Of a stretch of 64,000 nt of DNA, positions 1-35,784 are shown piece after piece; position 1 is the stretch's first letter, and every line of letters begins with the position of its first letter. The stretch is from Planctomycetota bacterium (GTDB lineage Bacteria > Planctomycetota > SZUA-567 > JAKLDR01), in contig JAKLDR010000003.1 of assembly GCA_022703445.1 (NCBI GenBank), positions 36,407-100,406 on the forward strand, in the 5' to 3' direction. The notes under the pieces were generated by a model. It had not been told where the DNA came from. It did not search any database and was given only the letters and a program-made list of their open reading frames with translations. Made by a program: the position numbers and the translations under genes.

Positions 1-2
1 AC

Positions 3-3469: not shown

Positions 3470-3483
3470 GTGCCTGGTGCGCT

Positions 3484-3585
3484 GGGTGTATGTGGGTGTG
3501 TGGGTGCGCGAGTGTGTGGGTGGGGAGGCCGACGTCCGGGCTCCGATCACTCACACACTCACATACCCACAACTCACCCACGCTC
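3484..3585. repeat. Intergenic imperfect hairpin built from 8-bp GGGTGTGT / ACACACCC-like units
   Basis: GGGTGTGT, GGGTGCGC, GAGTGTGT, GGGTGGGG at 3494-3525 face ACACACTC, ACATACCC and similar units at 3553-3585. Confidence 0.75.
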
Positions 3586-3613
3586 TGAGCACTGGCCCAC
3601 GCGGAGGTTCCCC

Positions 3614-6600: not shown

Positions 6601-6685
6601 CGCCTACGTGGACGACCTCATCAACAAGCGCATCCTGCGCCTCCGGCTCGGCTACGCCGCGGAGGAGACGGTCGGAGTGCCGTGA
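3614..6685 (+). CDS. Secreted FlgD-like Ig plus NHL/SMP-30-type beta-propeller protein with an inserted CBM-like domain
   Basis: GGAGG at 3603-3607, ATG 3614, signal peptide; ISFAVDRETDVAVYIEDAKGTIVRHL (FlgD-like); PRGLAVDGKGHLLVADRGNNRVLVL (NHL). Confidence 0.7.
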   Translation: MHRVLICALSLGLATASATAAEPAPPKFVKKPAVARAGDRTTISFAVDRETDVAVYIEDAKGTIVRHLVAGVLGKNPPEPLKANSLEQSLEWDDRDDDGKQAAGGPFKIRVGLGLSASYAGQPFAAKGQSGPDAVENVAGLACAGDGRLLVLDRGVAFEGDHFWMYKLHAFLRDGSYERTIKPFPPGTPPERAKGAFVNAYGKLNPLVHSVPKMSFYTHDEVPGQPAVLPDGRLVLAVTPGLANLSPKGGIAHLATLDADGGISSETYAGPVLRAGQGWTGFPCLAASGDGKAVYLTGLGPMDHYGPSKPTHAVYIAKLPERGPAEVFFGDPAKAGADDAHLSDPRGLAVDGKGHLLVADRGNNRVLVLNEKDRSVAGSIPVDAPFWVAVHPKTGALYVACKETSLVKLAGWDNPKELARADFASLRAKTPEPYRWSYRMMFALDPSGAAPRIWVATSSALPQGRALAGLDDQGERFSEPAPARFFMPPLFRRPAADPTRREVGTSTDNDFRILDETTGAFRTLAGLSAQGRSHRIGPDGAIYAQDHWGKGGGVCRWDRNGKPLPFAATASDPWLRGRMPYGSNGFTDWERDFSVARNGDIYVKAQGPVYHGLSTVRVYDRDGNFKRVAIHSVTEGGYGPRLDARGNLYFMEACKEPGRLWPDEFKGRLINSAHEAWIDNIYGSIVKFGPEGGALWYQSDSLSPVTYEGWGVAFEKGRPGGKKTLSELKTTGGALVGTIAQAPVWLAFPRMGIDAAAHKKVTLRLKNGTGGDKATLAWQTVSGDGREFTKSVEIKPNSDFTEYVFDLAGEAGWKGALWNLQLSPTNAASGSFQIASVRIGEADSKLAWNFDAEDSPELRLPAAMKKEKVAANHRNSAVELQGAKWWRPGFSPIASGATGFCACTASDFDVDDFGRVFAPDTGRFRVGVLDANGNEIASIGEYGNQDCCGPDSYVLDPAGRFLRPRKADDPKEIASPSAKPEIGLAWVIGVAVTDRHAYVDDLINKRILRLRLGYAAEETVGVP

Positions 6686-18759: not shown

Positions 18760-18787
18760 AGGATACGGCCGCCGGCCCGGAGGTCAA
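18760..18787 (-). promoter_or_regulatory. sigma70-type promoter, probably giving a leaderless mRNA
   Basis: Minus strand TTGACC (18787-18782) - 16 nt - TATCCT (18765-18760); ATG 18753 follows 6 nt later. Confidence 0.6.
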
Positions 18788-18799
18788 AGGCAGGCGACG

Positions 18800-18870
18800 G
18801 GTTCAGGTGTCAGGTGTCAGCACGGGGCTCGGCTCTGACACCTGACACCTGACACCTGACACCTGACACC
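18800..18870. repeat. Heptamer hairpin (GTGTCAG)2 ... (CTGACAC)5
   Basis: Five perfect CTGACAC copies at 18835-18869; inverted copies at 18807-18820. Confidence 0.9.
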
Positions 18871-18883
18871 GGGGACTCCCGTC

Positions 18884-21535
18884 TTACTTCTTCGCCGCTC
18901 CCATCGCCGGCTCGAAGGTCTTCAAGCTCGCCTTCTCCAGCCGCGCGGCCAGGATCTCCTGAGAGTTCGAGTGGAAGAGGGCCAGCTTCATCCCGGGGTC
19001 GTAGGCCACGACCAGGTTGATGTCCGAGTAGGGCTTGTCGTTGACCCGCGGCTGCCCGTCGCTGCAGGGGAGCGCGAGGCCGACCCACTTCTTCCCCTCG
19101 ATGTCGTAGGCCAGGTTGCCGGTCGAGCCGCCCGAGGTCTGCCGGCCGGCCGACAAGACCATGTCCAGCTCGGGGATGTAGGCGCACCCGCGCATGTAGA
19201 TGCCCACCGGCGAGCCGGGCGACTCGGAGGTGACTTCGCCGGTCTTCATGTCGTAGCGGCACACGGGGTTGCCGCCGTTCGAGATCCACAGGCAGTCGCG
19301 CTTGGCGTCGTGGCAGACGCCGGCGGTGTCGCAGTAGGCCGACGGCAGCTTGCCCTTGACCGGCAGCTTGCTCCAGCTCTTCGCCTTGGCATCGTAGAGC
19401 TGGAGGTTGCCGTTGTAGTCCCAGTAGACGACTCCCCGGGGCGTGCCGGTCATGTTGACCTTGGTCCCGCCGCCGTTCTCCTGGAGCGGCGGGTACTCCC
19501 ACTCGCGGCGGGCCGGGTCGTAGACCCAGGTGTGGCCGCGCACGCAGTAGACCGCCTTGCCGGAGGCCTCGTCGAAGGCCGAACAGTCCCAGACGTGGGT
19601 CGGCACGGTCGGCCGGTTGCGGAAGGTCTGGTTGAAAAATGCGCAGAAGCTGGCCGCCTGGTAGGGGAACTCCTCGCCGTAACCCTGGCTCCAGGCCGCG
19701 GTGCGCAGGCTGTAGTGGGCCACGTCGGTGAAGTGGCAGACGCTGTGCCCGCCGCCGAAGGAGATCCACTGGTGGCGCCCGGTGTCGTAGAGCGCCTTGC
19801 CCCAGGGGTGCGAGTTGGCCGCCTTGGGCGGCTTGGGCAGGGCGGTCCACTGGTTGGCGGGCATCTCCTTGAGAAGCTTCCCGATGGCCTCCGGGTCGGG
19901 CTTGGCCGCCCGGTCGTAGTCGGCGGGTGTGTCGAAGACGATCCTGGCGGAGCCCGGCGCGACGCCGGCCTTGTCCGACCCGGCGTCGGCGGCGCCCGGG
20001 TCGACCTTCATGCCGCAGGTGATCCGGGCGTTCTTGTTCTTGGGATCCACTCCGGCCACGACCAGCACGTCATCGGCGCCAACGTCCCCGTAGGCGTCGA
20101 CCGGACCGTCCTTCGACGGGCCCGCCAGCTGCTTCCACTCGTTGGCGTCGAGGTCGTAAGTCCAGAGATCCTGAGGCGACGGCGCGTTGCCGTGCGGCGA
20201 GCCGTAGCCGCTGGTGAAGGCGATGGCGCCGTAGAGCACCACGCGCTTGCTCTTGGGGAGCCAGGCCATGACCTGGCCGGAACGCGGCGCGGGGGCGACC
20301 TTGGGCCAGCGCTGCTCCCAGCTGCGCGTCTTGCAGTCGTAGACCCAGGTGTCGGCCAGGTACCCGTCGAGGCGGCAGCCGCCGAAGAGGACGAGCCTGT
20401 CCTTGCCGGCGCAGGCCACCATCCCGGCCGCGGCCCGGCCGCAGGGCTCGACGTCGAGAGCCCGCTCGGCGAAGTCCGCGGTTTCGACCAGGGCCTGGCC
20501 CTCGGCCAGCGTCTCCCCGGAGATCTTGCCGCCGACCTTGCCGGCCAGCGCCTTGAAGCCGGCCGCGACCTTCTCCAGCATCGGCAGCGCCGCCTTGGGC
20601 GCGCCGGCCTCGCCTCCGGACAGCTTGGCCGCGCCAAGCTTGCCAGCGAGCTTCTCGGCGGCGGCGGCAACCGCGTTGGCCGCGGCGGCTAGGTCCGCCT
20701 TGGCCTCGGCCTCGTTCTCGGTGACGTGGTAGCGGTTGCGACAGGCGTTGAGGCACGCGGACGCGGAGGCCAGGAGCGCGCCGGCCTCGGCGTTGAGATC
20801 CTTCATCTCCTTGGAGCCGGGCGAGAGCTTCTTCCATTCCTTGCCGGCGGGCGAGAAGGTCCAGGTCCCGGGCGTGCCGCCGGCCTCGTCGCTGGTGCCG
20901 CCGATGGAGACGATCTCCTTGTTGACCGGGTCCCAGGCCATGGTCCCGTAGATCAGCCAGCAGTTGGTGCTCTTGCTGAACTTCGGCACTTTGAGATTCG
21001 TCCAGACGCCGGTCTTGGGGTCCAACGTCAGGGTGGCGTCGAAGTGGTAGGCGTAGAGCTTGCCGTCGTCCGGGTTGTAGGCCCACTGGCGGAAGAGCCC
21101 CGGATCCCACTCGTAGGGGTTGTACCCGCGCACGATGCGCATCACGCCGTCCTTGGCGGCCTTGAGCGGGACGTCCCGGCGATCGAAGCCGGCGAACTGG
21201 CCGTCGGAGGGGCCGCTCTCGGCCTTGCCGGCCGAGCCCGGCGGATAGACGTTGGTCCACTTGCCGGCGGCCGGATCGAAGTGCTCGGTGTCCTCGTGGG
21301 CGGTCTTCTTCGCGCTGCCGCCGGCGACCACGAACCGGCCCAGCGCCGGATCGTGGAAGAAGGCCGGCCAATCGCGGGCCCCGGTGGCCTCCTGGGACAG
21401 CTTAACCCAGGTGTTCGCCGGAGCGGACTTCAGGGCCGGGTTGTCGGCCGCGCCTCCGCCGTCCGCCGCGCGTGCCGCCTGCATCGCGGCCAGCAACACC
21501 GCCATGACCAGTAGGGGATGTGATTGCGACCTCAT
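18884..21535 (-). CDS. Secreted kelch-like beta-propeller protein with a helical insert
   Basis: GGAGG upstream; signal peptide; MAWDPVNKEIVSIGG, LVLFGG...LADTWVYD, PAPRSGQVMAW repeats. Confidence 0.75.
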   Translation of the reverse strand: MRSQSHPLLVMAVLLAAMQAARAADGGGAADNPALKSAPANTWVKLSQEATGARDWPAFFHDPALGRFVVAGGSAKKTAHEDTEHFDPAAGKWTNVYPPGSAGKAESGPSDGQFAGFDRRDVPLKAAKDGVMRIVRGYNPYEWDPGLFRQWAYNPDDGKLYAYHFDATLTLDPKTGVWTNLKVPKFSKSTNCWLIYGTMAWDPVNKEIVSIGGTSDEAGGTPGTWTFSPAGKEWKKLSPGSKEMKDLNAEAGALLASASACLNACRNRYHVTENEAEAKADLAAAANAVAAAAEKLAGKLGAAKLSGGEAGAPKAALPMLEKVAAGFKALAGKVGGKISGETLAEGQALVETADFAERALDVEPCGRAAAGMVACAGKDRLVLFGGCRLDGYLADTWVYDCKTRSWEQRWPKVAPAPRSGQVMAWLPKSKRVVLYGAIAFTSGYGSPHGNAPSPQDLWTYDLDANEWKQLAGPSKDGPVDAYGDVGADDVLVVAGVDPKNKNARITCGMKVDPGAADAGSDKAGVAPGSARIVFDTPADYDRAAKPDPEAIGKLLKEMPANQWTALPKPPKAANSHPWGKALYDTGRHQWISFGGGHSVCHFTDVAHYSLRTAAWSQGYGEEFPYQAASFCAFFNQTFRNRPTVPTHVWDCSAFDEASGKAVYCVRGHTWVYDPARREWEYPPLQENGGGTKVNMTGTPRGVVYWDYNGNLQLYDAKAKSWSKLPVKGKLPSAYCDTAGVCHDAKRDCLWISNGGNPVCRYDMKTGEVTSESPGSPVGIYMRGCAYIPELDMVLSAGRQTSGGSTGNLAYDIEGKKWVGLALPCSDGQPRVNDKPYSDINLVVAYDPGMKLALFHSNSQEILAARLEKASLKTFEPAMGAAKK

Positions 21536-21609
21536 GTCTTTGTCCCTCCAAAACAACTTCCGTTGGCAGGGCAGGCAGAAGATTGCCTGCTTCGGCTCCC
21601 GTCGCAGCC

Positions 21610-24279
21610 TCAGCGCGCCCCCCCGATGGCCGCCCCGACTTCCCCGGCTACGACCAACAGCCGTGCGTCAGCTTCAGAGCGCCCCACCTCCCAGCGCCGG
21701 ATGACGGCCTCGGAGCGCGCGTCGAGCAGCCGGTTGACCCGCTGCTCCAGGTCGCCGCTGAGCCGCTTCTCCTCTATCGCCCGCTGCAGGAAGATGAGGG
21801 CCTCGGCGAGCTGCACGCCCTCGCGGAGCATCTCGAAGCGCTCGGTGGCGATGGCCCCGGCCTCGCCGGGGGCCAGTATGGCCCGGGTGCTGTTGTTCGG
21901 GCCGCCGGTCCCGCGGCCGCAGCCGACGGAGTAGAACCGCCCATTGGCGCCCTTGATCGGGAAGAAGTCGGCGCCGAAGTCGCTCAGCCCGTCGTGTCCG
22001 CGCATGATTTCGCTCTCGGGAATGTCGCGCAGCACGGTCAGCTCCGAGTTGTCGTAGAAGCCGTTGCGGAAGGTGTAGCAGCAGAAGCCCGGGCGCGGCT
22101 TGAGCAGCGCCCGGTACCCCCGGGGAGCCACCGGGCCGGCAGTCCAGACGGCGTCCGCCTGGCGCACCGGCATGGAGACGTCCTTCTCCGACGAGACGAA
22201 GCGCATCCCCAGGGTCCCATTGTGCGCGGTGTAGCTCCACTGCGCGTCAGGCCAGATCTTCCGGCAGACATCCACGACCCGCGGGTCCGGCGGGTAGCAG
22301 TAGCTGTTGTGGCCCACAGCCGTCACGTCCCACCACCCGCGCGCCTCGATTCGCTTACGGACCTCGTCGAGCACCGGCTTCCAGAACTTCAGGCTCTCAT
22401 CCGTGCCGGGCATGGGCTGCTCCAGGGACTCGAGCTTGCCCGAAGCCGGGTCGAGCACGGTGACCGGCATGCGGTCGTTGCAGACCATCTGGCCGTTCTT
22501 CATCTTGATCCCGGGCCAGCAATTGACCCGCAGCAGGGTCGGCTTGCCGATGGTCTTGGTGACGAGGTCCATGTACTTGTCGAAGGCGCCGAAGTCGTAC
22601 CGGAATGAGCCGTCCGGCTGCCGGACCCAGCGGACCAGCGACTGCTCGTTGCTGCAGTCCGCCCGGTTCTCGCTGTAGAAGTTGACGGCCAGGTTGACGG
22701 CGACCTGTCGCGAGTTGATCTCGGCCATCAGCTCCAGGGACTTGGCCATCAGCGCCAGGTGCCGGTCGCTCCAGAGTTCGGCGCCGTAGTGCTTGGCGAT
22801 CGCGTCCTCGGAGAGGAGGGCGAAGTTGTGAGTCCGGAAGTCCCGGGGATCGGGCAGGCACCAGGCGGAGACCTCGACCCGCAGCGGAACGGTAGTGGGC
22901 GCCAGGCCCTGGGCGGAGACGGTCACGGAGCCCTCGTAGCGTCCGGGCTGCGCGTCCTTCGGGACCCGCACGCTGAACCAGAGCGGGGCCAGCGCCCCGC
23001 AGGTGCCCCGGAAGCCGGCGCCACGGCGCTCCCGGGGCACAGGGGCGTTGACCACGGCGATCTCGGCGGGGACGGCATCGAGGAGGCCGTCGAAGCGGTG
23101 CGGCGGCGCCCAGGACTTGCCGGTCTCGGCCGGAGCGGCATAGCGCACGCGCACCGCGGCGGCCGGGATGCTCGCGCCGCCCCCGCCAGGCCCCGAGCCG
23201 GTCGACGGGACTCGGACCAGCTCGGAGACCTGCACCTTGAGGCCCCTGATGGCCCGGTCCGAGCTGACCACCAGCCGGCCCGAGAAGACGCCGTTCCTGG
23301 CGGCCGCCACCTCGATGGGCAGAGGCCGGCCCGGATCGCCGTAGTCGAAGGCGGTCACCGTCTCGTAGGCGGCCACGTTCCAGACCTGGATGCCGCCGGG
23401 GCGTCCGATGTTGGGCGTCGCGCCGCCGCCGGGTGCGGTCAGGCTGATGCTCTTGAGGCCGGCGTAGGCCCACATGCCCGGAACGGTGCCCATCCCGCTG
23501 CCCGCGCGGGCGGCGCGCCGGGCGGCTATGGCCGGCTCGTTTATCGCCGCCCGATGAATCCGGACGGCCAGGACGTTGCCCCCCTTGACCAGGAGCCTGG
23601 CGGGAACGGTTACGTCGGTCAGCCGGCGGTAGCGGCGCTCGAAGCCGGCGGGATTCCTGGCCGGATCCTGCAGATAGGTGCCGTCGGCCTCGCAGTGCAG
23701 GTCGTCGGGGTACTTCTCGGCCAGGGTGTCGACCTTGAGCTCTCCAGCCGGCAGGTGGCCGCGGGTCAACTCCTGGCCGTTGACGTAGACCGCTGCACCA
23801 CCTACGTACTCGAGCGAGAGCTTCAGGTCCCCGGCTTTCTCCGGGTCTTCGGCCATGAACTTCCAGCGCAGGCAGATGATCGAGTTGGGCGCCGCGGTGT
23901 AGCGCGCAGCCTGGCTGTGGCCGGTGGCGCTTCCCGGGGCCAACTCCACCGGAGGGTTCTGGCGCTCCCAGCAGGAGTCGTCGAACTCGGGCTTCATCCA
24001 GCCGTCGGGGGGCGGCGGCGACTGGTAGGTTTCCAGCGGCTTGGGGTCCTTGCCGACCGGCTCGAGGGGAACACTGAGCTTGCCGTCCCGGGCGATGCAG
24101 ACGGGTGTCCGGAAGACCAGATAGGAGCGCAGGTAGCTGTCGTTGCTCAGGACGGTCGCTCCGGCCGACGCCGGGACCGCCTTGTCCTCCGCGGACCGCG
24201 CCGGCGGAGCGGCCGCCAACAGCGCTGCGGCCAGGACCACCCGCACGACGAGGTAGCAGATGCGTCTGAACTCGGTCAT
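21610..24279 (-). CDS. Secreted GH123/DUF4091-like protein, paralog 3 (jelly-roll domain plus barrel)
   Basis: GGAGGG RBS; signal peptide; GGAAVYVNGQELTRGHLPAG, PLWFSVRVPKDAQPGRYEGSVTV, TERFEMLREGVQLAE. Confidence 0.7.
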   Translation of the reverse strand: MTEFRRICYLVVRVVLAAALLAAAPPARSAEDKAVPASAGATVLSNDSYLRSYLVFRTPVCIARDGKLSVPLEPVGKDPKPLETYQSPPPPDGWMKPEFDDSCWERQNPPVELAPGSATGHSQAARYTAAPNSIICLRWKFMAEDPEKAGDLKLSLEYVGGAAVYVNGQELTRGHLPAGELKVDTLAEKYPDDLHCEADGTYLQDPARNPAGFERRYRRLTDVTVPARLLVKGGNVLAVRIHRAAINEPAIAARRAARAGSGMGTVPGMWAYAGLKSISLTAPGGGATPNIGRPGGIQVWNVAAYETVTAFDYGDPGRPLPIEVAAARNGVFSGRLVVSSDRAIRGLKVQVSELVRVPSTGSGPGGGGASIPAAAVRVRYAAPAETGKSWAPPHRFDGLLDAVPAEIAVVNAPVPRERRGAGFRGTCGALAPLWFSVRVPKDAQPGRYEGSVTVSAQGLAPTTVPLRVEVSAWCLPDPRDFRTHNFALLSEDAIAKHYGAELWSDRHLALMAKSLELMAEINSRQVAVNLAVNFYSENRADCSNEQSLVRWVRQPDGSFRYDFGAFDKYMDLVTKTIGKPTLLRVNCWPGIKMKNGQMVCNDRMPVTVLDPASGKLESLEQPMPGTDESLKFWKPVLDEVRKRIEARGWWDVTAVGHNSYCYPPDPRVVDVCRKIWPDAQWSYTAHNGTLGMRFVSSEKDVSMPVRQADAVWTAGPVAPRGYRALLKPRPGFCCYTFRNGFYDNSELTVLRDIPESEIMRGHDGLSDFGADFFPIKGANGRFYSVGCGRGTGGPNNSTRAILAPGEAGAIATERFEMLREGVQLAEALIFLQRAIEEKRLSGDLEQRVNRLLDARSEAVIRRWEVGRSEADARLLVVAGEVGAAIGGAR

Positions 24280-24293
24280 CGCGCCCTCCGCTC

Positions 24294-27149
24294 TCACTTG
24301 GCGTCAGAGCCTGTAAAGAACCTGGCACGCTCCTCGGCGCCCGGCGCCTTGCCGCCCGCGGCGGCCGCCGCCGCGGCGTAGAGATCCCAGCTCCGCTCCT
24401 GCCAGCCGCCGCAGTACTCGCCGATGCGCGTCGAGGGCGAGCCCGGCGGCAGTATCAGGGTCTCCTCAATGCGCCGGTCGAGCATGGCCTGGGCGGCGCG
24501 ACCGGGCCCGGTCTGGCCCCAGGCCTCCTCCAGCTTGCGCTCCAGGAAGATGCGCGCTTCGGTCTCCTGTACGCCCTCGACCAGACACTCGAAGCGGGCG
24601 GTGCTCTCCGCGCCCTCCGGCCCGGGGCCGAGCACGGAGTTGACCGTGGCCCCGACGTGGCCGCCCTTATAGATGCCCGCCCAGTAATCCGCGCCCATCC
24701 GGCCGATGCCTCGAACCCCGGCCAATTCCGCCCGCTCCGGCGCGATCCGGAAGCAGAACGGCACCGAGTCGGTGTACAGCGTTATCGCCGAGCTCAGCAC
24801 CCGCGGGAAGACCAGGCGCATCGCCGGGTTCTTCCAGCCGCGGTTGCCGCAGACGACCCAGCGGCCTGTCGCCTTGTCCTTGGCCAGGGGCTCGCGCAAG
24901 TCGTAGATGCTGGTGACCAGCGTGAAGGGATCCTTGGCGGCCTTGTTCATGCCCTTGGAGTGAGCGTGGCAGCCGCGGGCCCAGCCGACCTCGGGGGCCA
25001 CCTCGCCGAAAGCCTTGACCATCCCGAAGAAGTTGGCGTCGAGCCCGTCCCACGGGTAGCCCCAGCACCCGGCTTTCTCCAGACCGCGCTTCTTGAGAAC
25101 CTCGACGAAGCCTTTGGCGAACGGCTCCAGCACCTTCTTCGCGTCGGGGGAATCGAGGGCCGGCAGATCGACCCCTTCGGTCTTGCCGGAGGACTCATCC
25201 CGGGCCAGAACCCGCAGCTTGACGATGTTGGACGCGCCGTAGAAGGGGTCGTTGTAGACCACCGCGCAGACCGCCCGGGGCGTGCAGCCGGCCTTGAGCG
25301 CGACGTCCAGGTACTTCTCGAGCCGGGAGAGATCGCAGCCCCAGCTGCCGTCGGCCTTCTTCACGAATACGACCGGCGAGTCCTGGTTGTTGCCGAACTC
25401 CGAGCCCATGGCCACCGGCACGATCACGATGGCGTTGTTGACGCGCGAGAGCTGCCGGAAGCTCGCGGTCATCAGCTTGAGGTGCTCGTCGGACCAGGCC
25501 GCGACCTTGTACTGCTTGGCCACTCCGTAGGGCGACTGCTCCAGCGCCACCACCGTCTCGAACTTCTGCGGCTCGGGCAGCGTCCAGTCCATGACCTGGA
25601 GGCGCAGCGGCACGCGGACCTCCTCGGCCCCGGCCTTGAGGGCGAGCGCGCCGGAGTACTCGCCCGGCGCGGCGTCGCGCGGCACGGCCACGGTGACCCA
25701 CACCGGCTGGCAGCTGCCGGCCGGGACGGACGCGGGCGCGGCGGCGCCGAGCTGGTCGAAGACCAGGGTTTCGGCGGCGGTCTTGGCGTTGGCCGCCTTG
25801 TCGAGAAGCAGACGGTTGCCGGCCAGGCGCTGCAGCTCCAGCGTGATGTTCGCGCTCTGTCCGGACTCGGTATCGAAGTTGTTCAGGCCCGCGGTGGGCA
25901 CCGGCGTGGACAGGGGCAGCCCCCGGGCGAAGCGGACGGAGACGGCCGCCGCCGGGATCTTCCCTCCGCCGGCCGAGGTCAGCTCGGTGACCGAGGCGGA
26001 GAGGCCGTTGATCGCCTTGTCGGTGCCGAGCACCACCTGCCCGGAATAGGTCCCGCCGCGCGCCCCGACCAGCCGCACCGGACTGGCCGCGGCGCTGCCG
26101 CTGGGGCCGAACTCGGGAGAGAGGTAACGGCGGTGCAGGTCGTCGGACCAGGCCTGCAGTCCGGCCGGCCGGCCCTCCAGAGCCACCGCGCCCGGCGGGT
26201 CGACGGCCGCATCCATCTCGAGCAGGCCCCCGTGCAGCCAGGAGTAGCCGCCCATCGAGTCCCAGACGTCGCCCAGGCGCTTGCGGTCGGTAACGATGGC
26301 GTTGAGGTCGCTGCGGTGGACCTCCACCGCCACGACGTTGACGCCCTTCCGGAGGAGACCGGCCGGGACCTCTAGCGGCCCGAGCGTCCGGTTGCGCAGC
26401 TTGAAGAGCTCGTCCCATTCCGGCCTGGTGATCTGGTAGTTGCCGCCGTTCCACCAGGAGTGGTAGCCGATGGCCTCGGGGTTGGACTTGTTCTTGACCG
26501 GCTCGCCGGTGCGGTAGTCGCCCTTGCCCCAGGCCCGGGAGAACTCCGGCAGCGGCCGGCCCTGGAGCGTGTATGCCTCGGCGGGGTAGACCACTCCGCC
26601 GACGTCGGCCGCCACCTTGCCGGCCGGGAGATGGCCGCGGCCGATCTCCTGGCCGTTGACGTAGACGACCGCACCGCCGCGATAGGCGAGCCTGATGGTC
26701 AGGCGCTTGACCTTGGCCGGATCGTCGACCAGCAGCTGCTGGCGGAAGCAGGACAGGCCCACGCCGTGCGAAGGCGCGCAGCCCTCGGAGCTGAAGCAGG
26801 GCGGCCGCGGGTGGCCGGCGGTGAAGGGCAGGCGCGCGCGCTGCCAGGCGGAGTCGTTGAACTCTGCAGCGGCCCAGTCCGCCGGCGGCGGCGCCGATTT
26901 GATGAGCAGGGTAAGCGGCGACCTCTCGCCGTGCCCCGAGTATACGAACTCGTAGCAGCCGGTGTCTTTGCCGGTCGCCGCGGGGGCCGCCGGATCGGCC
27001 GCCAGCCGCGCCGGCGAGAGCATGAAGTAGTGCCGCCAGTAGCCGGCCATCAGGTCGAGGTTGCCGGCGGCTGCCGGGGGCTCACCGGCCGGGGCCGTGG
27101 CGCACAACAGCGAGCAGAAGAGCCCGGTGATCGCGATGCGTCCGAACAT
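24294..27149 (-). CDS. Secreted GH123/DUF4091-like protein, paralog 2
   Basis: Start at MFGRIAITG with RBS and signal peptide; QPVWVTVAVPRDAAPGEYSG, TARFECLVEGVQETE. Confidence 0.7.
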   Translation of the reverse strand: MFGRIAITGLFCSLLCATAPAGEPPAAAGNLDLMAGYWRHYFMLSPARLAADPAAPAATGKDTGCYEFVYSGHGERSPLTLLIKSAPPPADWAAAEFNDSAWQRARLPFTAGHPRPPCFSSEGCAPSHGVGLSCFRQQLLVDDPAKVKRLTIRLAYRGGAVVYVNGQEIGRGHLPAGKVAADVGGVVYPAEAYTLQGRPLPEFSRAWGKGDYRTGEPVKNKSNPEAIGYHSWWNGGNYQITRPEWDELFKLRNRTLGPLEVPAGLLRKGVNVVAVEVHRSDLNAIVTDRKRLGDVWDSMGGYSWLHGGLLEMDAAVDPPGAVALEGRPAGLQAWSDDLHRRYLSPEFGPSGSAAASPVRLVGARGGTYSGQVVLGTDKAINGLSASVTELTSAGGGKIPAAAVSVRFARGLPLSTPVPTAGLNNFDTESGQSANITLELQRLAGNRLLLDKAANAKTAAETLVFDQLGAAAPASVPAGSCQPVWVTVAVPRDAAPGEYSGALALKAGAEEVRVPLRLQVMDWTLPEPQKFETVVALEQSPYGVAKQYKVAAWSDEHLKLMTASFRQLSRVNNAIVIVPVAMGSEFGNNQDSPVVFVKKADGSWGCDLSRLEKYLDVALKAGCTPRAVCAVVYNDPFYGASNIVKLRVLARDESSGKTEGVDLPALDSPDAKKVLEPFAKGFVEVLKKRGLEKAGCWGYPWDGLDANFFGMVKAFGEVAPEVGWARGCHAHSKGMNKAAKDPFTLVTSIYDLREPLAKDKATGRWVVCGNRGWKNPAMRLVFPRVLSSAITLYTDSVPFCFRIAPERAELAGVRGIGRMGADYWAGIYKGGHVGATVNSVLGPGPEGAESTARFECLVEGVQETEARIFLERKLEEAWGQTGPGRAAQAMLDRRIEETLILPPGSPSTRIGEYCGGWQERSWDLYAAAAAAAGGKAPGAEERARFFTGSDAK

Positions 27150-27163
27150 GGTCACTCCCCCCG

Positions 27164-29836
27164 CTACTTGCTGCCGAAGAACCTGGCCCTGTCGTCTGCC
27201 GACGGCGCGCGCCCGCCGAAGGCCGCCGCGGCAGCGGCGTAGAGGTCCCAGCTGCGCTCCTGCCAGCCGCCGTAGTACTCGCTCATGGCCGTCTCCCCGT
27301 CGCCGCAGGGCACGGCTGAGAGGGCCCGGATGCGCGCCTCGAGCACCGACTTGGCCGGCTCGGCCCCGTCCTTCCCGGCCTTCTCGAGCTGGATGCGGGC
27401 CTCGGCCTCCTGCAGCCCCTCGCGCAGCGCCTCGAAGCGCGCCGAACCTTCGGCCCCCTCCGGGCCCGGGTACAGCAGGTAGGTCTGGAAGGGCGCGTAC
27501 CAGTTGGAGAAGACCAGCGGCGGCCAGTAGTCGGCGCCGATCCGGCCGAACCCGGAGACGCCGTTGACCAGGCAGTTCTCCGGCATCCAGCGCATGGCCA
27601 TGGGCGTCTCGAAGACGCCGGCGGCCTGGATGGCTGAGGCGCACCGCGGGAAGAGCACCAGGCCGGGCTTCTTCCAGCCCTGCCGGCTGACCACCTGGCC
27701 CTCCCGGGTGAACGGCTCCTGGCCGGTGCGGATGACCATGTCCAGGTTGGCCGTGGTGCTGCCCTTGGGGAACGCCTGCCCGCGGAAGCCCTCGTGGCTG
27801 GCCCGGGCCCAGCCCACGCCCGGGCACTCGGCCGCCAGCGCCTCGGCCATGGCCATCACGCCGTTGGGCGAGTCGTAGAACCAGGCCCAGTACATCTTCT
27901 CGAAACCCTTCGACTTCACACGGGCGCTGACCGCCTTGGCGAAGGGCACGAAGAGCTTCTTCCACTCGTCGGAGTCGCCAGGCGGCAGCTTGAGTTCGCC
28001 CTTCTGCCCGCCGTCGAGGGTGGTCACACCGCGGTAGGTCATCGCCCAGCCCTTGCCGCTGTTGCTCCAGCCGAGCTCGAGCACCACGCTGGCGTTCTTG
28101 CCCCAGTGCTTGGCGACCAGGTCGAGGTAACGGTCGAGGTTCTTCCAGTCGTAGTCGTAGCCGCCGCCCGTCTTCACCCAGGGAACCAGCGACTCGGTGT
28201 TGTCGGACTCGCCGCCGGTCACCAGCGGCAGGATGACCAGGTCGTTGCCGACCTCGGCCAGCATCCGGACGGAGCGCTCCAGGTGCTTCCAGTGGTCCTC
28301 GGACCACGGCGCGCACTTGTACTGGGCAGGGGCGCTCCAGGGAGAGCTCTGCAGCCCCGTGAAGGTGGCCAGGTCCCGGCCATCGGGCAGAAGCCAGTCC
28401 ATGACCTGGAGCCGCACCTCGGCCTTGAGCGCCTGACCAGCCTGGATGGTGAGCGTGCCGCGGTACTGCCCGGCCGGCGCGTCCTTCGGCACCCGGACCG
28501 TCACCCAGACAGGCTGGCAGCTGTTCGCCGGGACCGAGACCGGGGGCTTCTCGGCCAGCTGGTCAAAGAGGGCGATGACCTTGCCCTCGGCCCAGACCTC
28601 CTTGCCCGGCCAGCCGCGCCCGAAGCCCCAGCCCCGGTAGTCGCAGCCATCCAGGGCGTTGAAGGCCAACAGCCGGAGGGCGTGGTCGTCGTAATTCTCG
28701 CGCTTGCCGTAGGCCCAGGCCCGCGGGAGGTTGTCCAGGGGCGTGCCGAGGCCGTAGCGCAGCTGGACGGCCGAGGCCGGGATCTTCCCGGCGCCCCCGA
28801 CCTGCTCCAGGTCGCTCATCTGCGCGGAGACGCCGCCCAGGGCCGCCGAGGTACCGACCACGGCCATCCCGGAGTGGACGCCGTTGCGCCCGCCGACGAT
28901 GCGCACGATTGCGGGGGCGGCGCCCGTCTCGCCCCAGTCGCGGCTGACGACGCGCCGGTGGATGTCCTCGGCCCACACCTGCACTCCGGAAGGCCGGGAC
29001 GGACGGACCGCCGCGTCGGCGGGCGTTGGCTTGAGCGAAAGGTTGAGCACGTACAGGTGCGGCCAGGGCAGATCCTTGTAGCCGTTCATGGAGCCCGGGC
29101 TCCACTTGTTCGCCAGAGGCTGGTAGCCCGAGCGGATTACGGCCAACGCCAGGACGTTGCTGCCCTTGACCAGCAGCTTGGGGTCGAGCGACAGGGTCAC
29201 GCGGCGGAAGCGCTCGGCCGTCTCGGAGGGGGCCTTCCAGTCGTTCATGTCCGCGGGGTAGTTGTGCTTGTTGACGGGGATGCCCCAGGCATAGGCCTCC
29301 GGCGGATAGCCCTCGGCCAGCGTCTCGGGGGTGAGCGCCCCGGCGGCCAGGCCCTTGCGGGCGACTTCCTTGCCGTTGAGGTAGACGACCGCCCCGCCGA
29401 TGAACGTGACCGCGAACTCGAGCTTGGTCACCCGGGCCGGGTCGGGGACCTCGAAGCTGGCGCGGGCCAGGGCCATGCGGACCCCTGGGTCGTACATGTA
29501 GCCGCCCTCGTGCGGGCCGGCCTTCTGCCTGACCCAGAGAGAGTCGTCGAAACCCGGCTCGGCCCAGCCGGCGGGGATGTCCCCGGACTGGACCCGCGCC
29601 TGGCTGGCGCCGATATGCCAGCCGCGGTAGTAGTTGAGGATGCCGGTGGGCTTGCCGGCCGCATCCACGACCATCGGCGGGCGCAGCACCAGGCGGTAGC
29701 GCCAGTAGCTGCCCTCCCACTTGAGGATCGCGCCGTCCGAGGCGGCCGCGGGTGCGGCTGGCTCAGCGGCCCGGACGTTTCCGAAGAGGATCGCGGAGAA
29801 GGACAGGAGCACCGCAGCCATCGCGTGGATCTTCAT
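27164..29836 (-). CDS. Secreted GH123/DUF4091-like protein, paralog 1
   Basis: Start MKIHAMAAV overlaps the regulator stop (ATGA); QPVWVTVRVPKDAPAGQYRG, SARFEALREGLQEAE. Confidence 0.7.
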   Translation of the reverse strand: MKIHAMAAVLLSFSAILFGNVRAAEPAAPAAASDGAILKWEGSYWRYRLVLRPPMVVDAAGKPTGILNYYRGWHIGASQARVQSGDIPAGWAEPGFDDSLWVRQKAGPHEGGYMYDPGVRMALARASFEVPDPARVTKLEFAVTFIGGAVVYLNGKEVARKGLAAGALTPETLAEGYPPEAYAWGIPVNKHNYPADMNDWKAPSETAERFRRVTLSLDPKLLVKGSNVLALAVIRSGYQPLANKWSPGSMNGYKDLPWPHLYVLNLSLKPTPADAAVRPSRPSGVQVWAEDIHRRVVSRDWGETGAAPAIVRIVGGRNGVHSGMAVVGTSAALGGVSAQMSDLEQVGGAGKIPASAVQLRYGLGTPLDNLPRAWAYGKRENYDDHALRLLAFNALDGCDYRGWGFGRGWPGKEVWAEGKVIALFDQLAEKPPVSVPANSCQPVWVTVRVPKDAPAGQYRGTLTIQAGQALKAEVRLQVMDWLLPDGRDLATFTGLQSSPWSAPAQYKCAPWSEDHWKHLERSVRMLAEVGNDLVILPLVTGGESDNTESLVPWVKTGGGYDYDWKNLDRYLDLVAKHWGKNASVVLELGWSNSGKGWAMTYRGVTTLDGGQKGELKLPPGDSDEWKKLFVPFAKAVSARVKSKGFEKMYWAWFYDSPNGVMAMAEALAAECPGVGWARASHEGFRGQAFPKGSTTANLDMVIRTGQEPFTREGQVVSRQGWKKPGLVLFPRCASAIQAAGVFETPMAMRWMPENCLVNGVSGFGRIGADYWPPLVFSNWYAPFQTYLLYPGPEGAEGSARFEALREGLQEAEARIQLEKAGKDGAEPAKSVLEARIRALSAVPCGDGETAMSEYYGGWQERSWDLYAAAAAAFGGRAPSADDRARFFGSK

Positions 29837-30921
29837 TTCTGTGCCTCCCTCAGGGTGACCGGAATCTTGATGAGCACTGGGCGCAGCTTCGGCTCGGCGC
29901 GCCGCTCGGACAGCCGCCGGACGGCCGCGCGGCCGAGTTCCGCAGCGCTCCAGACCATGGTGGCCGGCGGCCCGTCGCCGCCGAATAGCGGGCGGTAGAC
30001 CCGCTCGTACTGCTCCTCCGGAGACCAGCCCACGATCTCCAGGTCCCTGCCCGGCACCATGCCGCGCTCGCGGGCGGCGCGGTGCAGCGCCGCCGCCGAC
30101 TCGTGCCACAGGCCCAGCGCCGCGGTCGGCCGCTCCGGCCGGGAGAGCATCTCCCGGGCCGCCTCGAGCGCCCCGGCGCGCGCGGTGTCGGCCAGCAGCT
30201 CCGGCTCGATCCGCAGCCCGGCCAGGGCCAGGCCCGCTACGGCTCCGCCGAAGCGCTCGGCGCCCTGGGCGCTTTCGGAGATCGGACCGAGCCAGCCGAT
30301 CCGCCTGTGCCCGCGCGAGGCCAGGTGGCTCACGGCCAGCAGCGCGCCCTGGAAACCGTCCTGCACCACCGCATCCATGCCCATCTCCGGAACCCAGGCA
30401 TCGACCATGACCGCCGGCAGCCCCATCCCCCGAACCGCCGCCGTCAGCTCCGGGCGGTTGGTGTCCAGGATCATGCCGCACGCGCGGCAGCTCTGGAGCT
30501 GCGCGGCGACCTCCTGCACCGGCCGGGCGCCGGCATCGATCGTCAGCAGCGACCACCCCCGGGCCGAGGCGGCCTGTTGGAGCGCAGCGAGGAGCATCTG
30601 ACGGAAGAGATCCCAGGACCCGGGGCCGGCCGGATCGCTCATGACGAAGGCGACCGGCAGCCCGCGGTCCGGGTCGTTCGCCATGGCCTGGGCGCGATGC
30701 CCATGGCGCGGCTCGCAGGCCACCAGCCCCTCCGCCTGCAGGCGTTTGACAGCGCGCCGCGCCGTCTCGCGGGAGACGCCGTACTTGGCACCCAGCTCGC
30801 GCACGGTGGGCAGGACCTGCCCGGCGGCGATGGCGCCGGAGTAAAGCATGCTCTTAAGTTCATCGGCAAGGGCTGCGTATCCCTGTCCGCAGCTCACTTG
30901 CGACAACCTTTTGACACGCAT
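29833..30921 (-). CDS. GntR winged-HTH plus LacI-type ligand-binding transcriptional regulator (AraR-like architecture)
   Basis: GQVLPTVRELGAKYGVSRETARRAVKRLQAEGLV followed by a periplasmic-binding-protein-like domain; GGAGG 8 nt upstream. Confidence 0.88.
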   Translation of the reverse strand: MRVKRLSQVSCGQGYAALADELKSMLYSGAIAAGQVLPTVRELGAKYGVSRETARRAVKRLQAEGLVACEPRHGHRAQAMANDPDRGLPVAFVMSDPAGPGSWDLFRQMLLAALQQAASARGWSLLTIDAGARPVQEVAAQLQSCRACGMILDTNRPELTAAVRGMGLPAVMVDAWVPEMGMDAVVQDGFQGALLAVSHLASRGHRRIGWLGPISESAQGAERFGGAVAGLALAGLRIEPELLADTARAGALEAAREMLSRPERPTAALGLWHESAAALHRAARERGMVPGRDLEIVGWSPEEQYERVYRPLFGGDGPPATMVWSAAELGRAAVRRLSERRAEPKLRPVLIKIPVTLREAQK

Positions 30922-30939: not shown

Positions 30940-30968
30940 ACATTACACCGCAGGGATGACATTGTCAA
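30940..30968 (-). promoter_or_regulatory. sigma70 promoter of the regulator/GH123-like operon with an overlapping palindrome
   Basis: Minus strand TTGACA (30968-30963) - 17 nt - TAATGT (30945-30940); TGACA-T-TGTCA palindrome at 30957-30967. Confidence 0.7.
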
Positions 30969-32461: not shown

Positions 32462-35400
32462 TTACTGCGCGCCCTTGCTGATGCTCTCGTAATACCTCTT
32501 CACCAGCTCCTCGTACCCCGCCGGCACGCCGCCTTCCATGGCGTCGTAGAGCTCGTCTCTGAGGCGCTTGGGGATCATCGCGGAGTTGTCCTGCCGGACC
32601 TGGCTCTCGGCCGCGGCGAAATCGCGGGTGGTCTTGAGGCCCTCGAGCATCACGTTGCGCTTCCGGGCGATGTTCTGGTAGCGGCCGTCCTTCATGTCCA
32701 CGGAGGTCTCGCGCATGAGGTTGATCACCCGGTCGAGGTCGGTGGTGGGCTGGTTCCGGACCTTGAGGTCCAGGGCCAGCCGCTCGGCGCGGGCGAGCAA
32801 CTGGGCCTGCTTGCCGGCGAGGCGCCCCACGTCCTTCTGGACCTCGGGGGGCGGGGGACCCTCCAGCCCCTCGCCGCCGCCGCCGCCGACCTTGCCGCCG
32901 CCGGTGGCGCCGCCGGCCGGGTCCTTGGACGTGTCCTTGATGTCGCCCTTGAGGAATGCGTCGGGCGTGAGCCTGGTCGGCGTGTTCCGGCCGCCCTTGC
33001 CGGTGGCGGTGTCCTCCACGAACTCGCCGGCGGCCTTCCCCGTGCGGCCCTCGCCGGAGCGGCCGTTGATCTCCGAGGAGTTGGGCAGGCGGTTGCCGGT
33101 CACGCCCTGGGCGGACATGTTGCTGATCGGCCCGTCCATGGCGTCCCAGCCGGCGCCCTTGTCGAGCGAGTCGGCCCAGGCCGAGGTGGCGTCCTCCATG
33201 TCCTCGAAGATGTCCTCCTGCTCCTCCATGAGGTCGCCGATCAGGTCCTCGAGTTCGTGGGGCAGCTCGGCCATGGGCGTCTGGTTCTCGCCCACCGGCT
33301 CCTCCATCTTCCACTGCTGGCGGTCGGGCGTGTCCGGCAGCCACTTCTCGATGTGGGTGGTGAGCGCCTCGGCCAGCTCCAGCCCGGCCTGCTCCAGCGG
33401 CACGGCGACCTCGGCCGTCTTCTGGGTGAGCGCGTCCTTGGCCATCTCCACTTCGCTGTAGGTCTCCACGAGCTCCTTGAGCAGCTGGGCGTCGGTGAAG
33501 TCCTGCTTCTGGAGCTTGGAGAGGTCCGAGGCCGCGTCCTTCATGAACTTGGCCCACTTGTCCTCAGTGGCGGCCAGGGCCTCCTGCTTCTTCTTGTCGG
33601 CCTCGGTCATGTCCTCGACCGGGGTCTTGGCCAGGTCGTGGGTGGCCTCGATGACCTTCTTCTGCTCGTCGATGAAGTTCTTGAGGAGCTCGTCCAGCCT
33701 GGCCAGGGCCTTCCTGGCGTCATCGGGCAGATCCGTGCCGGTCTTCAGATCCTCCTTGGTCGCCTGGGCCTCGAGCTTCTCGACCAGGGCCAGGAGCTCG
33801 CGCAGCGTCTTGATGACCAGGTCCTGGGCGCCGGTGAGCCTGGCCTGGGCGGCCGGCTCGCGCGCGGCCTTGGCCGAGCCGGCCAGCGCCGCGGCGGCCT
33901 TCTCGGCGTCGAGCTCCGGGCCGGCGGCCAGGAGCAGCACCGCGCCGCGGATCCTCCGGGCGGCCGCGTCCTCCTGCGGCGCGGCGTCGGCAGCCGAGAT
34001 GGTCTCCCGGCGGACGGCCTCCTGCGCCGCCCCCAGCGCGGCGCAGCCGGCGAGCAGCGCCTTGTCGTCGGCCGGGGGCCTGCCCAGCAGCGTCCCGGCC
34101 TCGGCCCGGGCGGCGGTCTGGCGCTCGAGGACCTTCTTGAGGCGCGCCAGGAACTCGGCCAGGTCCTTGAGGCGCTCGGCGCCGGCCTTCTTGGGATCGA
34201 CCAGCTTGACCTGGAAGGTCGGGCTCTGGCCGGTCTGGAGGCGATCGGAGGCCTCCAGGTGGTAGATGATGACGTCGCCGGGGTCGAAGTCCCGCGCGGA
34301 GAGCGTCCAGCTGCGCACGAGCTGGGCGGACTTCCGGTCCGGAAAGTCCTTCCACTCGGTCAGCGTCTGAAGCTCACCGCCGCGGTTGCGGCGGTAGCGC
34401 AGCGCCGCCGACTTCAGCCCGTAGTCGTCGGTGGCCACGGCGGCGACGGCCAGCGTCGCGCCGACCGGCAGCTCCACGTCGCGCCCCGGGGCGCTGACCC
34501 GCACGGCCGGGGGGGCGTCGGGCACGGCCACTATCGGGTAGCTCGGCGGGTTGAGGTTGCGCGTGCCGGCCTCATCGGTCACCGCGATGGAGTAGCTGCC
34601 GGACTTCTCCACCAGGAACCGGCCGGAGAGCCCCGCGCCGCCGGGGAGCGGTTCGAGCCGCACCGACTCGGCCCCGGCGATGTCCACGCGGCCGTCGACG
34701 ACCGGGTGGTTGGCGCGCACCGCGATGGTCACCTCGGTGCCGACCGGCACGCGGATCTCGCGGTTCCGGGTCCGGGGGAAGCTCACGGGCTCCAGTCCGG
34801 CATAGGCCGGGTAGCGGTAGGCCAGGTCCACCTCGCGGACTTCCGGCCGCTCGACGACCGTGAGGGTGTAGCGCCCGGTCTGGCTGTCGCCGACTTCGAT
34901 CCGATAGCGGACCTCGCGCTCCAGACGGCTGAAGGTGTAGGTGTAGGTCTCGCCGTCGGCCGACTCCATGCGCCGGACGAACTCCGGACCGCTCCGCTCG
35001 CGGTAGACGATCCGACCGTCCGGGGCGCGCCCTTCGCCGGCCGGCGCGATCCTCGCGGTGACGGTCACGTCCGAGCCGGCCACGACGGTGGCGTCCCCGG
35101 GCTCCACGCCCAGGATGCTGACGCTGCCCTTCTGGGGTATGAAGGTGCCGGGCATGGCCAGGCGCGCCAGGGCCGAACCCATCCGGGCGGGGGCCAGCGC
35201 GAAGACCAGGGCCAGCAGCAGGAGACTCGCCCCGGCGAACTGCACGAGGCGCGTCCGGCGCCGGCGGTCGACGATCACCGCCGGGTCCAGCGCCGCGGCC
35301 GACTCGGCGGCCAGCGCCACCGTCGCGGCCACCAGGTCCCCCCCGACCGGTCTGACCTGTCCGCCTTCTTCGTTGCCCAGCTGCAGTCCGGCGATGAGCA

Positions 35401-35716
35401 GGTTGCCGAGCTCCGGCTCGCTGGTCTCGGCCAGCCGGGCCACGCGCTCGAGCGGGATGCGCTCGAACATGGGCCGGCCGACGAGCCAGCCGATCCCGGC
35501 GGCCAGCGCGGCCAGCGCCAGGACGAGCAGCGCCCAGCGCACCCCGTCCGGGAAGTGGAAGAGGGCCTCGGCTCCGGCCAGGAGCAGGACCAGCGCGGCC
35601 AGCCCCGCCGCCAGCTGGAGCAGCCCGGCCAGCACCAGGCTGGTCCGCCAGCGGTCGCGCACGACCGCCAGGCGGTCGGCGAGGATCAGCCTGGAGCGCT
35701 GGGCTTCCGGGGACAT
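32462..35716 (-). CDS. DUF4175-like membrane-anchored Ig-fold and coiled-coil protein
   Basis: N-terminal TM helices; YRYPAYAGLEP, VPDAPPAVRV, ATDDYGL; acidic helical C-terminus ending VPAGYEELVKRYYESI; GGAGG before ATG 35716. Confidence 0.72.
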   Translation of the reverse strand: MSPEAQRSRLILADRLAVVRDRWRTSLVLAGLLQLAAGLAALVLLLAGAEALFHFPDGVRWALLVLALAALAAGIGWLVGRPMFERIPLERVARLAETSEPELGNLLIAGLQLGNEEGGQVRPVGGDLVAATVALAAESAAALDPAVIVDRRRRTRLVQFAGASLLLLALVFALAPARMGSALARLAMPGTFIPQKGSVSILGVEPGDATVVAGSDVTVTARIAPAGEGRAPDGRIVYRERSGPEFVRRMESADGETYTYTFSRLEREVRYRIEVGDSQTGRYTLTVVERPEVREVDLAYRYPAYAGLEPVSFPRTRNREIRVPVGTEVTIAVRANHPVVDGRVDIAGAESVRLEPLPGGAGLSGRFLVEKSGSYSIAVTDEAGTRNLNPPSYPIVAVPDAPPAVRVSAPGRDVELPVGATLAVAAVATDDYGLKSAALRYRRNRGGELQTLTEWKDFPDRKSAQLVRSWTLSARDFDPGDVIIYHLEASDRLQTGQSPTFQVKLVDPKKAGAERLKDLAEFLARLKKVLERQTAARAEAGTLLGRPPADDKALLAGCAALGAAQEAVRRETISAADAAPQEDAAARRIRGAVLLLAAGPELDAEKAAAALAGSAKAAREPAAQARLTGAQDLVIKTLRELLALVEKLEAQATKEDLKTGTDLPDDARKALARLDELLKNFIDEQKKVIEATHDLAKTPVEDMTEADKKKQEALAATEDKWAKFMKDAASDLSKLQKQDFTDAQLLKELVETYSEVEMAKDALTQKTAEVAVPLEQAGLELAEALTTHIEKWLPDTPDRQQWKMEEPVGENQTPMAELPHELEDLIGDLMEEQEDIFEDMEDATSAWADSLDKGAGWDAMDGPISNMSAQGVTGNRLPNSSEINGRSGEGRTGKAAGEFVEDTATGKGGRNTPTRLTPDAFLKGDIKDTSKDPAGGATGGGKVGGGGGEGLEGPPPPEVQKDVGRLAGKQAQLLARAERLALDLKVRNQPTTDLDRVINLMRETSVDMKDGRYQNIARKRNVMLEGLKTTRDFAAAESQVRQDNSAMIPKRLRDELYDAMEGGVPAGYEELVKRYYESISKGAQ

Positions 35717-35784
35717 CGACCCTCCGGCGATCAGTCCTCCACCCCGACAGCCGGCCCGATGGCCGCCTGCCCGAGCATACAACT

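Follow-up and report, generated by a model that had tools for sequence, protein, structure and literature searches.

What do three large exported proteins with a glycoside hydrolase fold do in an operon that has a sugar-type regulator and a Kelch protein but no transporter? The question was raised by positions 18884-30921 of a 64,000-nt stretch (the window) of contig JAKLDR010000003.1, from an uncultured Planctomycetota bacterium. An earlier note had described five co-oriented genes there: a regulator gene (R), three GH123/DUF4091-like paralogs (A, B and C) and a Kelch gene (K). The GH123-like family that contains A, B and C is called F below. In soils, peat, sediments and digesters, Planctomycetota are among the main degraders of complex polysaccharides, and no function has been assigned to many of the proteins that they export. 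We consider it rather probable that the operon is a sugar-inducible cassette that handles a glycan, probably not one of N-acetylhexosamine (HexNAc), outside the cytoplasm, and that it is one of dozens in this genome.

Fold and domains of A, B and C

Pfam searches matched the GH123 catalytic domain (GH123_cat) in A, B and C at 5e-23, 8e-14 and 1e-16, together with the GH123 N-terminal beta-sandwich. The PF13320 scores were 82, 52 and 61 bits against a curated cut-off of 23.1, and PF22680 was likewise above its cut-off. No NCBIfam model matched A, B, C or K. The identity of A was 40% to B and 31% to C.

A search of the PDB with the family profile reached the BvGH123 structure 5l7r at 1.5e-53. 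The AlphaFold (AF2) model of A, built on a 55-sequence alignment (pLDDT 90.2, pTM 0.92), also gave BvGH123 as the top Foldseek match (E 3e-29, TMt 0.76). Other GH123/Nga structures came next, followed by GH2 beta-galactosidases, which match A in the domain order of jelly roll, Ig-like domain and TIM barrel.

The layout of A consisted of a signal peptide (residues 1-23), a GH2/GH78-like jelly roll (about 37-271), a beta-sandwich (about 285-482), a (beta/alpha)8 barrel (about 490-800) and C-terminal helices. The last three are shared with the characterised GH123/DUF4091 enzymes (BvGH123, 5l7r/5l7u/5l7v; CpNga123, 5fqe; NgaDssm, NgaLy and NgaP2). The jelly roll of about 250 residues is an addition of the F family, and the N-terminal domain matched part of the GH78 rhamnosidase SaRha78A at 1e-11.

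Three motifs that the earlier note had listed were found in all three proteins, except that C reads PLW in place of PVW. GGAxVYxNGxE sits in the extra jelly roll. The other two, PVWxxVxVPxxAxxGxYxG and RxExLxEGxQxxE, are general GH123 motifs that the F family has in common with the enzymes. The assignment to a GH123/DUF4091-like group in the same note agreed with Pfam, the PDB profile search and Foldseek. Its gene list (regulator, three secreted paralogs, Kelch protein, transporter absent) was borne out by Pfam, which adds that the regulator is of a sugar type, and by the flanking genes, and its gaps of -4, 14, 14 and 74 bp were reproduced by the open reading frame (ORF) calls when ATG starts were used for C and K.

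The catalytic pair is missing

The catalytic pair of BvGH123, D361-E362 (HIAMDERP), aligned to D-S in A, D-G in B and S-Y in C. In A, the end of strand beta4 reads FYDS (D655, without a Glu), and strand beta8 reads GFGRIGAD (R765, D769). B, of class I, has PWDG at beta4 and GIGRMGAD at beta8. C, of class II, has GHNSY at beta4, without an Asp, and GLSDFGAD at beta8, which places an Asp at position 765.

The survey of these residues covered 261 aligned sequences, made up of the members in this genome, database homologs and 50%-identity representatives. An Asp-Glu (DE) pair was present at the catalytic site in 2 of them, and the acid/base Glu was missing in the other 259. In a published survey of DUF4091, DE was found in 94% of 734 sequences (Sumida et al. 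2024, PMC11087588).

The acetamido-recognising Tyr and Trp were mapped onto the F family through a BvGH123 profile alignment. The equivalent of W464 of BvGH123, four residues past the beta8 Gly, is position 766, which is L, I, V, M or F. No conserved Tyr was found at positions 725-728, the equivalent of Y426/427. Both residues are thus replaced in the F family, the Glu is lost in all but the two sequences above, and class II has lost the Asp as well. In characterised members, D, E, Y392 and W431 (NgaLy numbering for the last two) are required for beta-N-acetylgalactosaminidase activity, which was strongly reduced or nearly abolished in the mutants (Sumida et al. 2024, PMC11087588).

One explanation would make A, B and C ordinary GH123 beta-N-acetylgalactosaminidases acting on glycans that contain N-acetylgalactosamine. 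The Pfam scores above the curated cut-offs are in its favour, as are BvGH123, CpNga123 and the Nga groups as closest structures. Against it stand the absence of the DE motif, the absence of the Tyr and Trp, and the effect of mutating any of these four residues. The missing Asp-Glu pair and acetamido-recognising residues make it very unlikely that A, B and C act as beta-N-acetylgalactosaminidases, and we give this explanation hardly any credence. Profile searches therefore place the three proteins in a characterised family, GH123, in a formal sense, but not at the residue level, where the catalytic pair is absent. Judged from sequence, automatic annotation misleads when it gives the name 'GH123' or 'glycoside hydrolase domain-containing protein' to the very large clade of proteins that lack DE.

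A coupled swap and a conserved polar set

Among the 261 sequences, D occupies position 655 in 202 and Y in 37; at position 765, R is found in 203 and D in 19. Taken together, the two positions form the pair D/R in 185 sequences, Y/D in 18 and D/D in none, which is covariation. A and B belong to the type with D655 and R765, and C to the type with Y655 and D765. In the alignment, this part of the F-family barrel thus always keeps a carboxylate by a coupled swap, on strand beta4 (D655) or on strand beta8 (D765).

Seven residues, H515, D563, H681, R731, E753, G762 and D769, were each conserved in at least 92% of the sequences. D655, H681, R731 and D769 fall just after predicted barrel strands in the model of A. 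Aligned polar residues of BvGH123 (H225, D278, H391 and R434) are shared by the F family, in which N467 of BvGH123 is replaced by an Asp (D769). Two structural residues of the GH123 enzymes are also kept. The Gly at the entry of beta8 (G427 of NgaLy) corresponds to G762, present in 255 of the 261, that is, in every sequence with a residue at this position, and the structural Arg (R478 of NgaLy) corresponds to R800, present in 217.

Because the polar residues of the barrel are strongly constrained and a carboxylate is kept at 655 or 765, the pattern speaks for a site that has kept a function in handling a sugar, but not in the neighbouring-group participation of a 2-acetamido sugar. A, B and C would bind this sugar in the old -1 site. 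In the proposed scheme, a rebuilt pocket has lost the acid/base Glu and the acetamido-holding Tyr and Trp, and H515, D563, H681, R731, E753 and D769 are nearly invariant, most of them lying in the model in loops that directly follow barrel strands. The proteins would most likely still cleave glycosidic bonds, by a mechanism other than substrate-assisted catalysis. From the sequences and the model, we put the odds that A, B and C are catalytic at about even.

Sigma-factor fusions

A, B, C and K of the window have signal peptides and no sigma domain. Some of their homologs carry sigma70 regions 2 and 4 and a transmembrane (TM) helix. In sigma-K homologs (P0097-99, P0104 and P0122-124), an extracytoplasmic function (ECF) sigma domain is followed by one hydrophobic helix and a complete K module. 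In sigma-F homologs (P0168, P0176, P0205, P0263 and P0275, among the best F-family representatives), the order is sigma domain, TM helix and complete F module. The two sigma-F sequences that were read, P0168 and P0205, have lost the Glu. The segments of linker and TM helix were similar in the sigma-K and sigma-F proteins. This suggests that they share one chassis with swappable outer domains.

The use of F and K modules as outer domains of sigma factors points to a role in the recognition of glycans or other ligands. Because the same modules serve as ECF sigma sensors, the free F and K proteins may recognise the glycan of the cassette, on what is good circumstantial evidence.

The RsgI anti-sigma factors of Clostridium thermocellum have outer sensor modules of the carbohydrate-binding module (CBM) or GH type, and planctomycetal ECF groups with WD40 extensions are an example of membrane-tethered ECF sigma factors that carry C-terminal ectodomains. 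The F and K relatives resemble these systems in that carbohydrate-active or propeller modules outside the membrane are coupled to a sigma factor controlling genes for glycan degradation. The difference is that, in these relatives, a single TM helix links the sensor directly to the sigma factor. The F and K genes of the window differ further, as they encode free exported proteins under a cytoplasmic repressor.

These fusions bear on a second explanation, in which A, B and C are pseudo-enzymes, that is, non-catalytic glycan binders derived from GH123 that would capture or sense polysaccharides together with K. The near-universal loss of the acid/base Glu fits it, as does the position of complete F modules in membrane-anchored ECF sigma factors, a place usually held by sensor domains. 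It is also in line with the Foldseek list of K, which is headed by glycan-sensing domains (see below). It accounts less well for the six charged or polar residues, most of them just after barrel strands in the model, that are at least 92% conserved, and for a carboxylate maintained by the coupled swap from D/R to Y/D, which exceeds the usual needs of a lectin site. Furthermore, free forms of F occur in operons with degradative enzymes, such as GH1 and PcRGLX-like proteins, and binding is normally done by small CBMs rather than by four-domain proteins of 900 residues. We regard the pseudo-enzyme explanation as unlikely, though deserving of serious attention.

Protein K

Pfam matched Kelch_1 to Kelch_6 in K. 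The AF2 model (pLDDT 91) consisted of two all-beta propeller regions separated by a helical insert (residues 242-359). By sequence, similarity to solved structures was limited to the Kelch blades at residues 357-488, and Foldseek gave a TMt of about 0.7 to Kelch domains. First in the Foldseek list came two Bacteroides hybrid two-component systems (HTCS), BT4673 and BT4663, through their periplasmic sensor domains with double propellers, at a TM-score of about 0.2. At this score the likeness of K to the HTCS sensor domains was taken as architectural, not as a sign of homology.

The second propeller contains invariant His597, His607, His647, Tyr583 and Tyr672 (motif WGGGHSxxHxxDVAHYS ... VPxHxWD). 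This cluster was also kept in the two sigma-fused homologs that were read, P0098 and P0123, and may bind a metal or another ligand. This genome has about 37-39 double propellers of the K type. K is a conserved partner of the A type, and would most likely bind or present the same glycan.

Transcript signals and regulator

In 18884-30921, the coding-type signature of G+C at third codon positions (GC3) was confined to the five minus-strand genes; the G+C of the window is about 70%. The ATG start of A is preceded by GGAGG and overlaps the stop codon of R by 4 bp, and 14 bp separate A and B. Two starts are available for C: GTG, which gives a 4-bp overlap with B, and ATG at 24279, which gives a 14-bp gap. 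K starts with an ATG behind a GGAGG site, leaving a gap of 74 bp, or with a TTG at 21556, leaving 53 bp. The N-termini of A, B, C and K each consist of a hydrophobic helix followed by an AxA-type site, and were of low pLDDT in the models of A and K. The four proteins are predicted to be exported through Sec signal peptides.

A promoter candidate upstream of R consists of TTGACA (30968-30963), a 17-nt spacer and TAATGT (30945-30940). Directly after the stop codon of K lies a hairpin with a minimum free energy of -63 kcal/mol (z -5.7), and none of 200 shuffles folded equally well. It has five tandem GGTGTCA heptamers facing inverted copies, and no U tract. This hairpin probably marks the 3' end of the transcript, as a terminator or a stabiliser. 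A search for internal terminators within the operon gave no more than two weak terminator-like sites, and shuffled sequences gave more. Because of the tight spacing, the lack of convincing internal terminators, the promoter-like site upstream of R and the hairpin after K, co-transcription of R-A-B-C-K is likely.

R gave Pfam matches to GntR (residues 15-74, 4e-17) and to Peripla_BP_1/3 (residues 108-357, about 1e-16). Its PDB matches were the cores of LacI, RbsR and PurR, and both halves of B. subtilis AraR (3tb6, 4egy), at E about 3e-5 for each half. R resembles AraR in being built from two domains, with a GntR winged helix at the N-terminus and a sugar-binding core of the LacI/GalR type at the C-terminus, and it too heads what would be a glycan-utilisation operon. 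The differences are the low sequence similarity and the presence of about 36-60 paralogs of R in this genome. Most likely, R would sit on an operator at its own promoter and be released when a sugar product binds to it in the cytoplasm.

A shared operator motif was looked for. A perfect 5-1-5 palindrome, TGACATTGTCA, occurs once in the window, and 37% of the shuffles yielded at least one match, so that the hit was not statistically significant. It is a possible autoregulatory operator.

Synteny and gene partnerships

In the sister species of the same genus (metagenome-assembled genome, MAG, CALGYR01; locus L001), the order is sigma-K, K (85% identity), A (82%), C (88%) and a short Kelch protein, without B and without R. 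The sigma-K gene at the head of this cluster, with an ectodomain 51% identical to K, occupies the place that R has here. On two metagenome contigs the orders were R-K-A-FlgD_ig-GH1 (L094) and K-A (L093). K orthologs lie directly upstream of A orthologs in all three loci, at 63-86% identity in L093 and L094.

The GH1 gene that ends the related R-K-A cassette lies at positions 13116-14444 of L094. From this, one may guess that the cassette releases a beta-linked disaccharide or glycoside, to be finished by the GH1 enzyme.

Domain searches found no transporter among the genes flanking the operon, and no SusC/SusD pair within the locus. The related cassettes L001, L093 and L094 have no transporter either, so its absence in the predicted gene set here is no surprise in this setting.

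Within two genes of an F gene in this genome, K genes were found 7 times against a shuffled expectation of 2.1, R genes 11 times against 2.05, and other F genes 28 times against 3.05. In F loci from other genomes, K lay within 8 kb in 7 of 78 and R in 8 of 78. These counts ruled out K and R as universal partners of the F family. K and R adjoin a minority of F genes, and the partnership is therefore specific to subfamilies.

The five genes might also be neighbours by chance or through the clustering of paralogs, with separate transcripts and unrelated roles. The scarcity of K and R within 8 kb of most F genes elsewhere would be expected in that case, and so would the difference in gene order between this genome and the sister species. 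Neither the single strand with its gaps of -4 to 74 bp nor the pairing of one promoter-like site upstream of R with one strong hairpin after K would be expected. The orthologs of K, A and C are together in the sister species, the K-A pair persists down to 63-70% identity, and the adjacency of F genes exceeds the shuffled expectation. We consider chance neighbourhood to be quite improbable.

Several points weigh against a sugar-inducible glycan cassette with active A, B and C. The loss of Glu and the use of the module as a sigma ectodomain fit non-catalytic binding equally well. Near beta4, the alignments disagree on the residue equivalences by one or two positions, and the grouping of the conserved residues in one pocket was derived from the secondary structure of the model. 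The candidate operator is without statistical support, as given by the shuffles above. Finally, K and R adjoin only a minority of F genes, both here and in other genomes.

Expansion of the F family

The source genome is a 5.99-Mb MAG, 81% complete. It contains 59 matches to PF13320. A profile of A, B and C found about 58 F members with the full architecture, of which about 45 were full-length and about a dozen lacked the first 290 or so positions; many were in tandem. Other expanded families are the FlgD_ig/NHL propellers (about 88 members, 34 of which adjoin GH123-like genes), PcRGLX-like proteins (33), PQQ_2 propellers (18) and FG-GAP proteins. About 20 ECF sigma factors have long C-terminal extensions.

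In a tree of the catalytic parts, the nearest paralog of A was on contig C112 (68% identity) and that of C on contig C266 (61%). B formed a long branch inside the small clade of A, and C fell in a separate clade of 46 members. Only B may have arisen by an old local duplication of A. A recent tandem triplication was ruled out by the tree, with its closer paralogs on other contigs, and by the orthology with the sister species. The earlier note had proposed that the three genes were diversified by tandem duplication. For A and C this was wrong, since their nearest paralogs are on other contigs and their orthologs are already adjacent in the sister species. Nor are the three genes a special exoenzyme battery, as the note had it; they are one of many cassettes drawn from a family of about 58 members.

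All four genomes of the family-level lineage have 21 to more than 36 copies of F, and other families of the class have 0-4. The relatives were found almost solely in MAGs of Planctomycetota (Phycisphaerae, Thermoguttaceae, Pirellulaceae and others), usually several per genome. Counted as clusters at 50% identity, the clade has 2,287 at E<=1e-30; a threshold of E<=1e-3 gives 24,275, a set that also takes in canonical relatives. Members carry only the database names 'hypothetical', 'glycoside hydrolase domain-containing' or 'DUF6067', and a literature search for DUF6067 and for GH123-like proteins in Planctomycetota found no paper describing the DE-less clade. The copy number of up to about 58 per genome and the existence of sigma-factor-fused versions set the F family further apart from the GH123/DUF4091 enzymes.

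Comparison with polysaccharide-utilisation loci

The operon resembles the polysaccharide-utilisation loci (PULs) of Bacteroidota, with their SusC/SusD pairs and HTCS such as BT4663, in having a regulator and exported glycan-directed proteins in one co-oriented cluster, and K has the tandem-propeller layout of the HTCS periplasmic sensor domains. Unlike these PULs, it has no SusC/SusD or other transporter and belongs to a different phylum, and the low TM-score of K limits the HTCS likeness to architecture, leaving homology unsupported.

A wider proposal can be made only tentatively, and we hold it to be rather doubtful. In it, the DE-less GH123-like clade (2,287 clusters or more) would amount to a carbohydrate-active enzyme family that has gone unrecognised, that has abandoned substrate-assisted catalysis and moved its catalytic carboxylate between beta4 and beta8, and that works with a dedicated Kelch double-propeller partner. 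Its cassettes, with AraR-type repressors or sigma sensors, would then be the planctomycetal counterpart of PULs.

Activity in proteins of the A, B and C type would make them a new family of enzymes, present in a genome in up to about 58 copies. Binding alone would make them pseudo-enzymes, in a large family that serves the capture of glycans and signalling. The coupled swap of D/R to Y/D in the pocket, the conserved pairing of K with A, and the sigma-factor fusions are handles by which these possibilities can be tested.

Feature coordinates and flanking genes

Table 1. Features of the operon (positions in the window) and sigma-factor fusions elsewhere in this genome (contig:positions)
Feature	Position	Strand	Length	Description
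R	29833-30921	-	362 aa	AraR-type chimeric repressor: N-terminal GntR winged helix and C-terminal LacI/GalR-type sugar-binding domain
A	27164-29836	-	890 aa	Exported GH123-fold protein (predicted)
B	24294-27149	-	951 aa	Exported GH123-fold paralog, class I (predicted)
C	21610-24297	-	895 aa from GTG start	Exported GH123-fold paralog, class II, distant subfamily (predicted)
K	18884-21535	-	883 aa	Exported tandem Kelch-type beta-propeller protein (predicted)
Hairpin 3' of K	18776-18873	-		Tandem GGUGUCA heptamers and inverted copies
Candidate sigma70-type promoter upstream of R	30940-30968	-		Read from sequence
Candidate operator palindrome TGACATTGTCA	30957-30967			Overlaps promoter -35 box
Sigma-F/sigma-K adjacent pair	C293:37246-40683 and C293:40975-44730			This genome
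Sigma-F	C57:28793-32251			This genome
Sigma-K	C271:13492-16899 and C112:172995-176102			This genome

The operon is flanked by genes for a radical SAM protein, ribosomal protein S20, a TPR protein, a metallophosphoesterase and a protein of 1106 residues. The last of these, two genes upstream of the operon (32462-35782, minus strand), matched no Pfam or NCBIfam family, and its GC3 of 0.96 is a very strong coding signature. At the start of the window, the plus strand encodes a PQQ_2 propeller protein (2-3469) and an NHL/FlgD_ig protein of 1071 residues (3470-6685).

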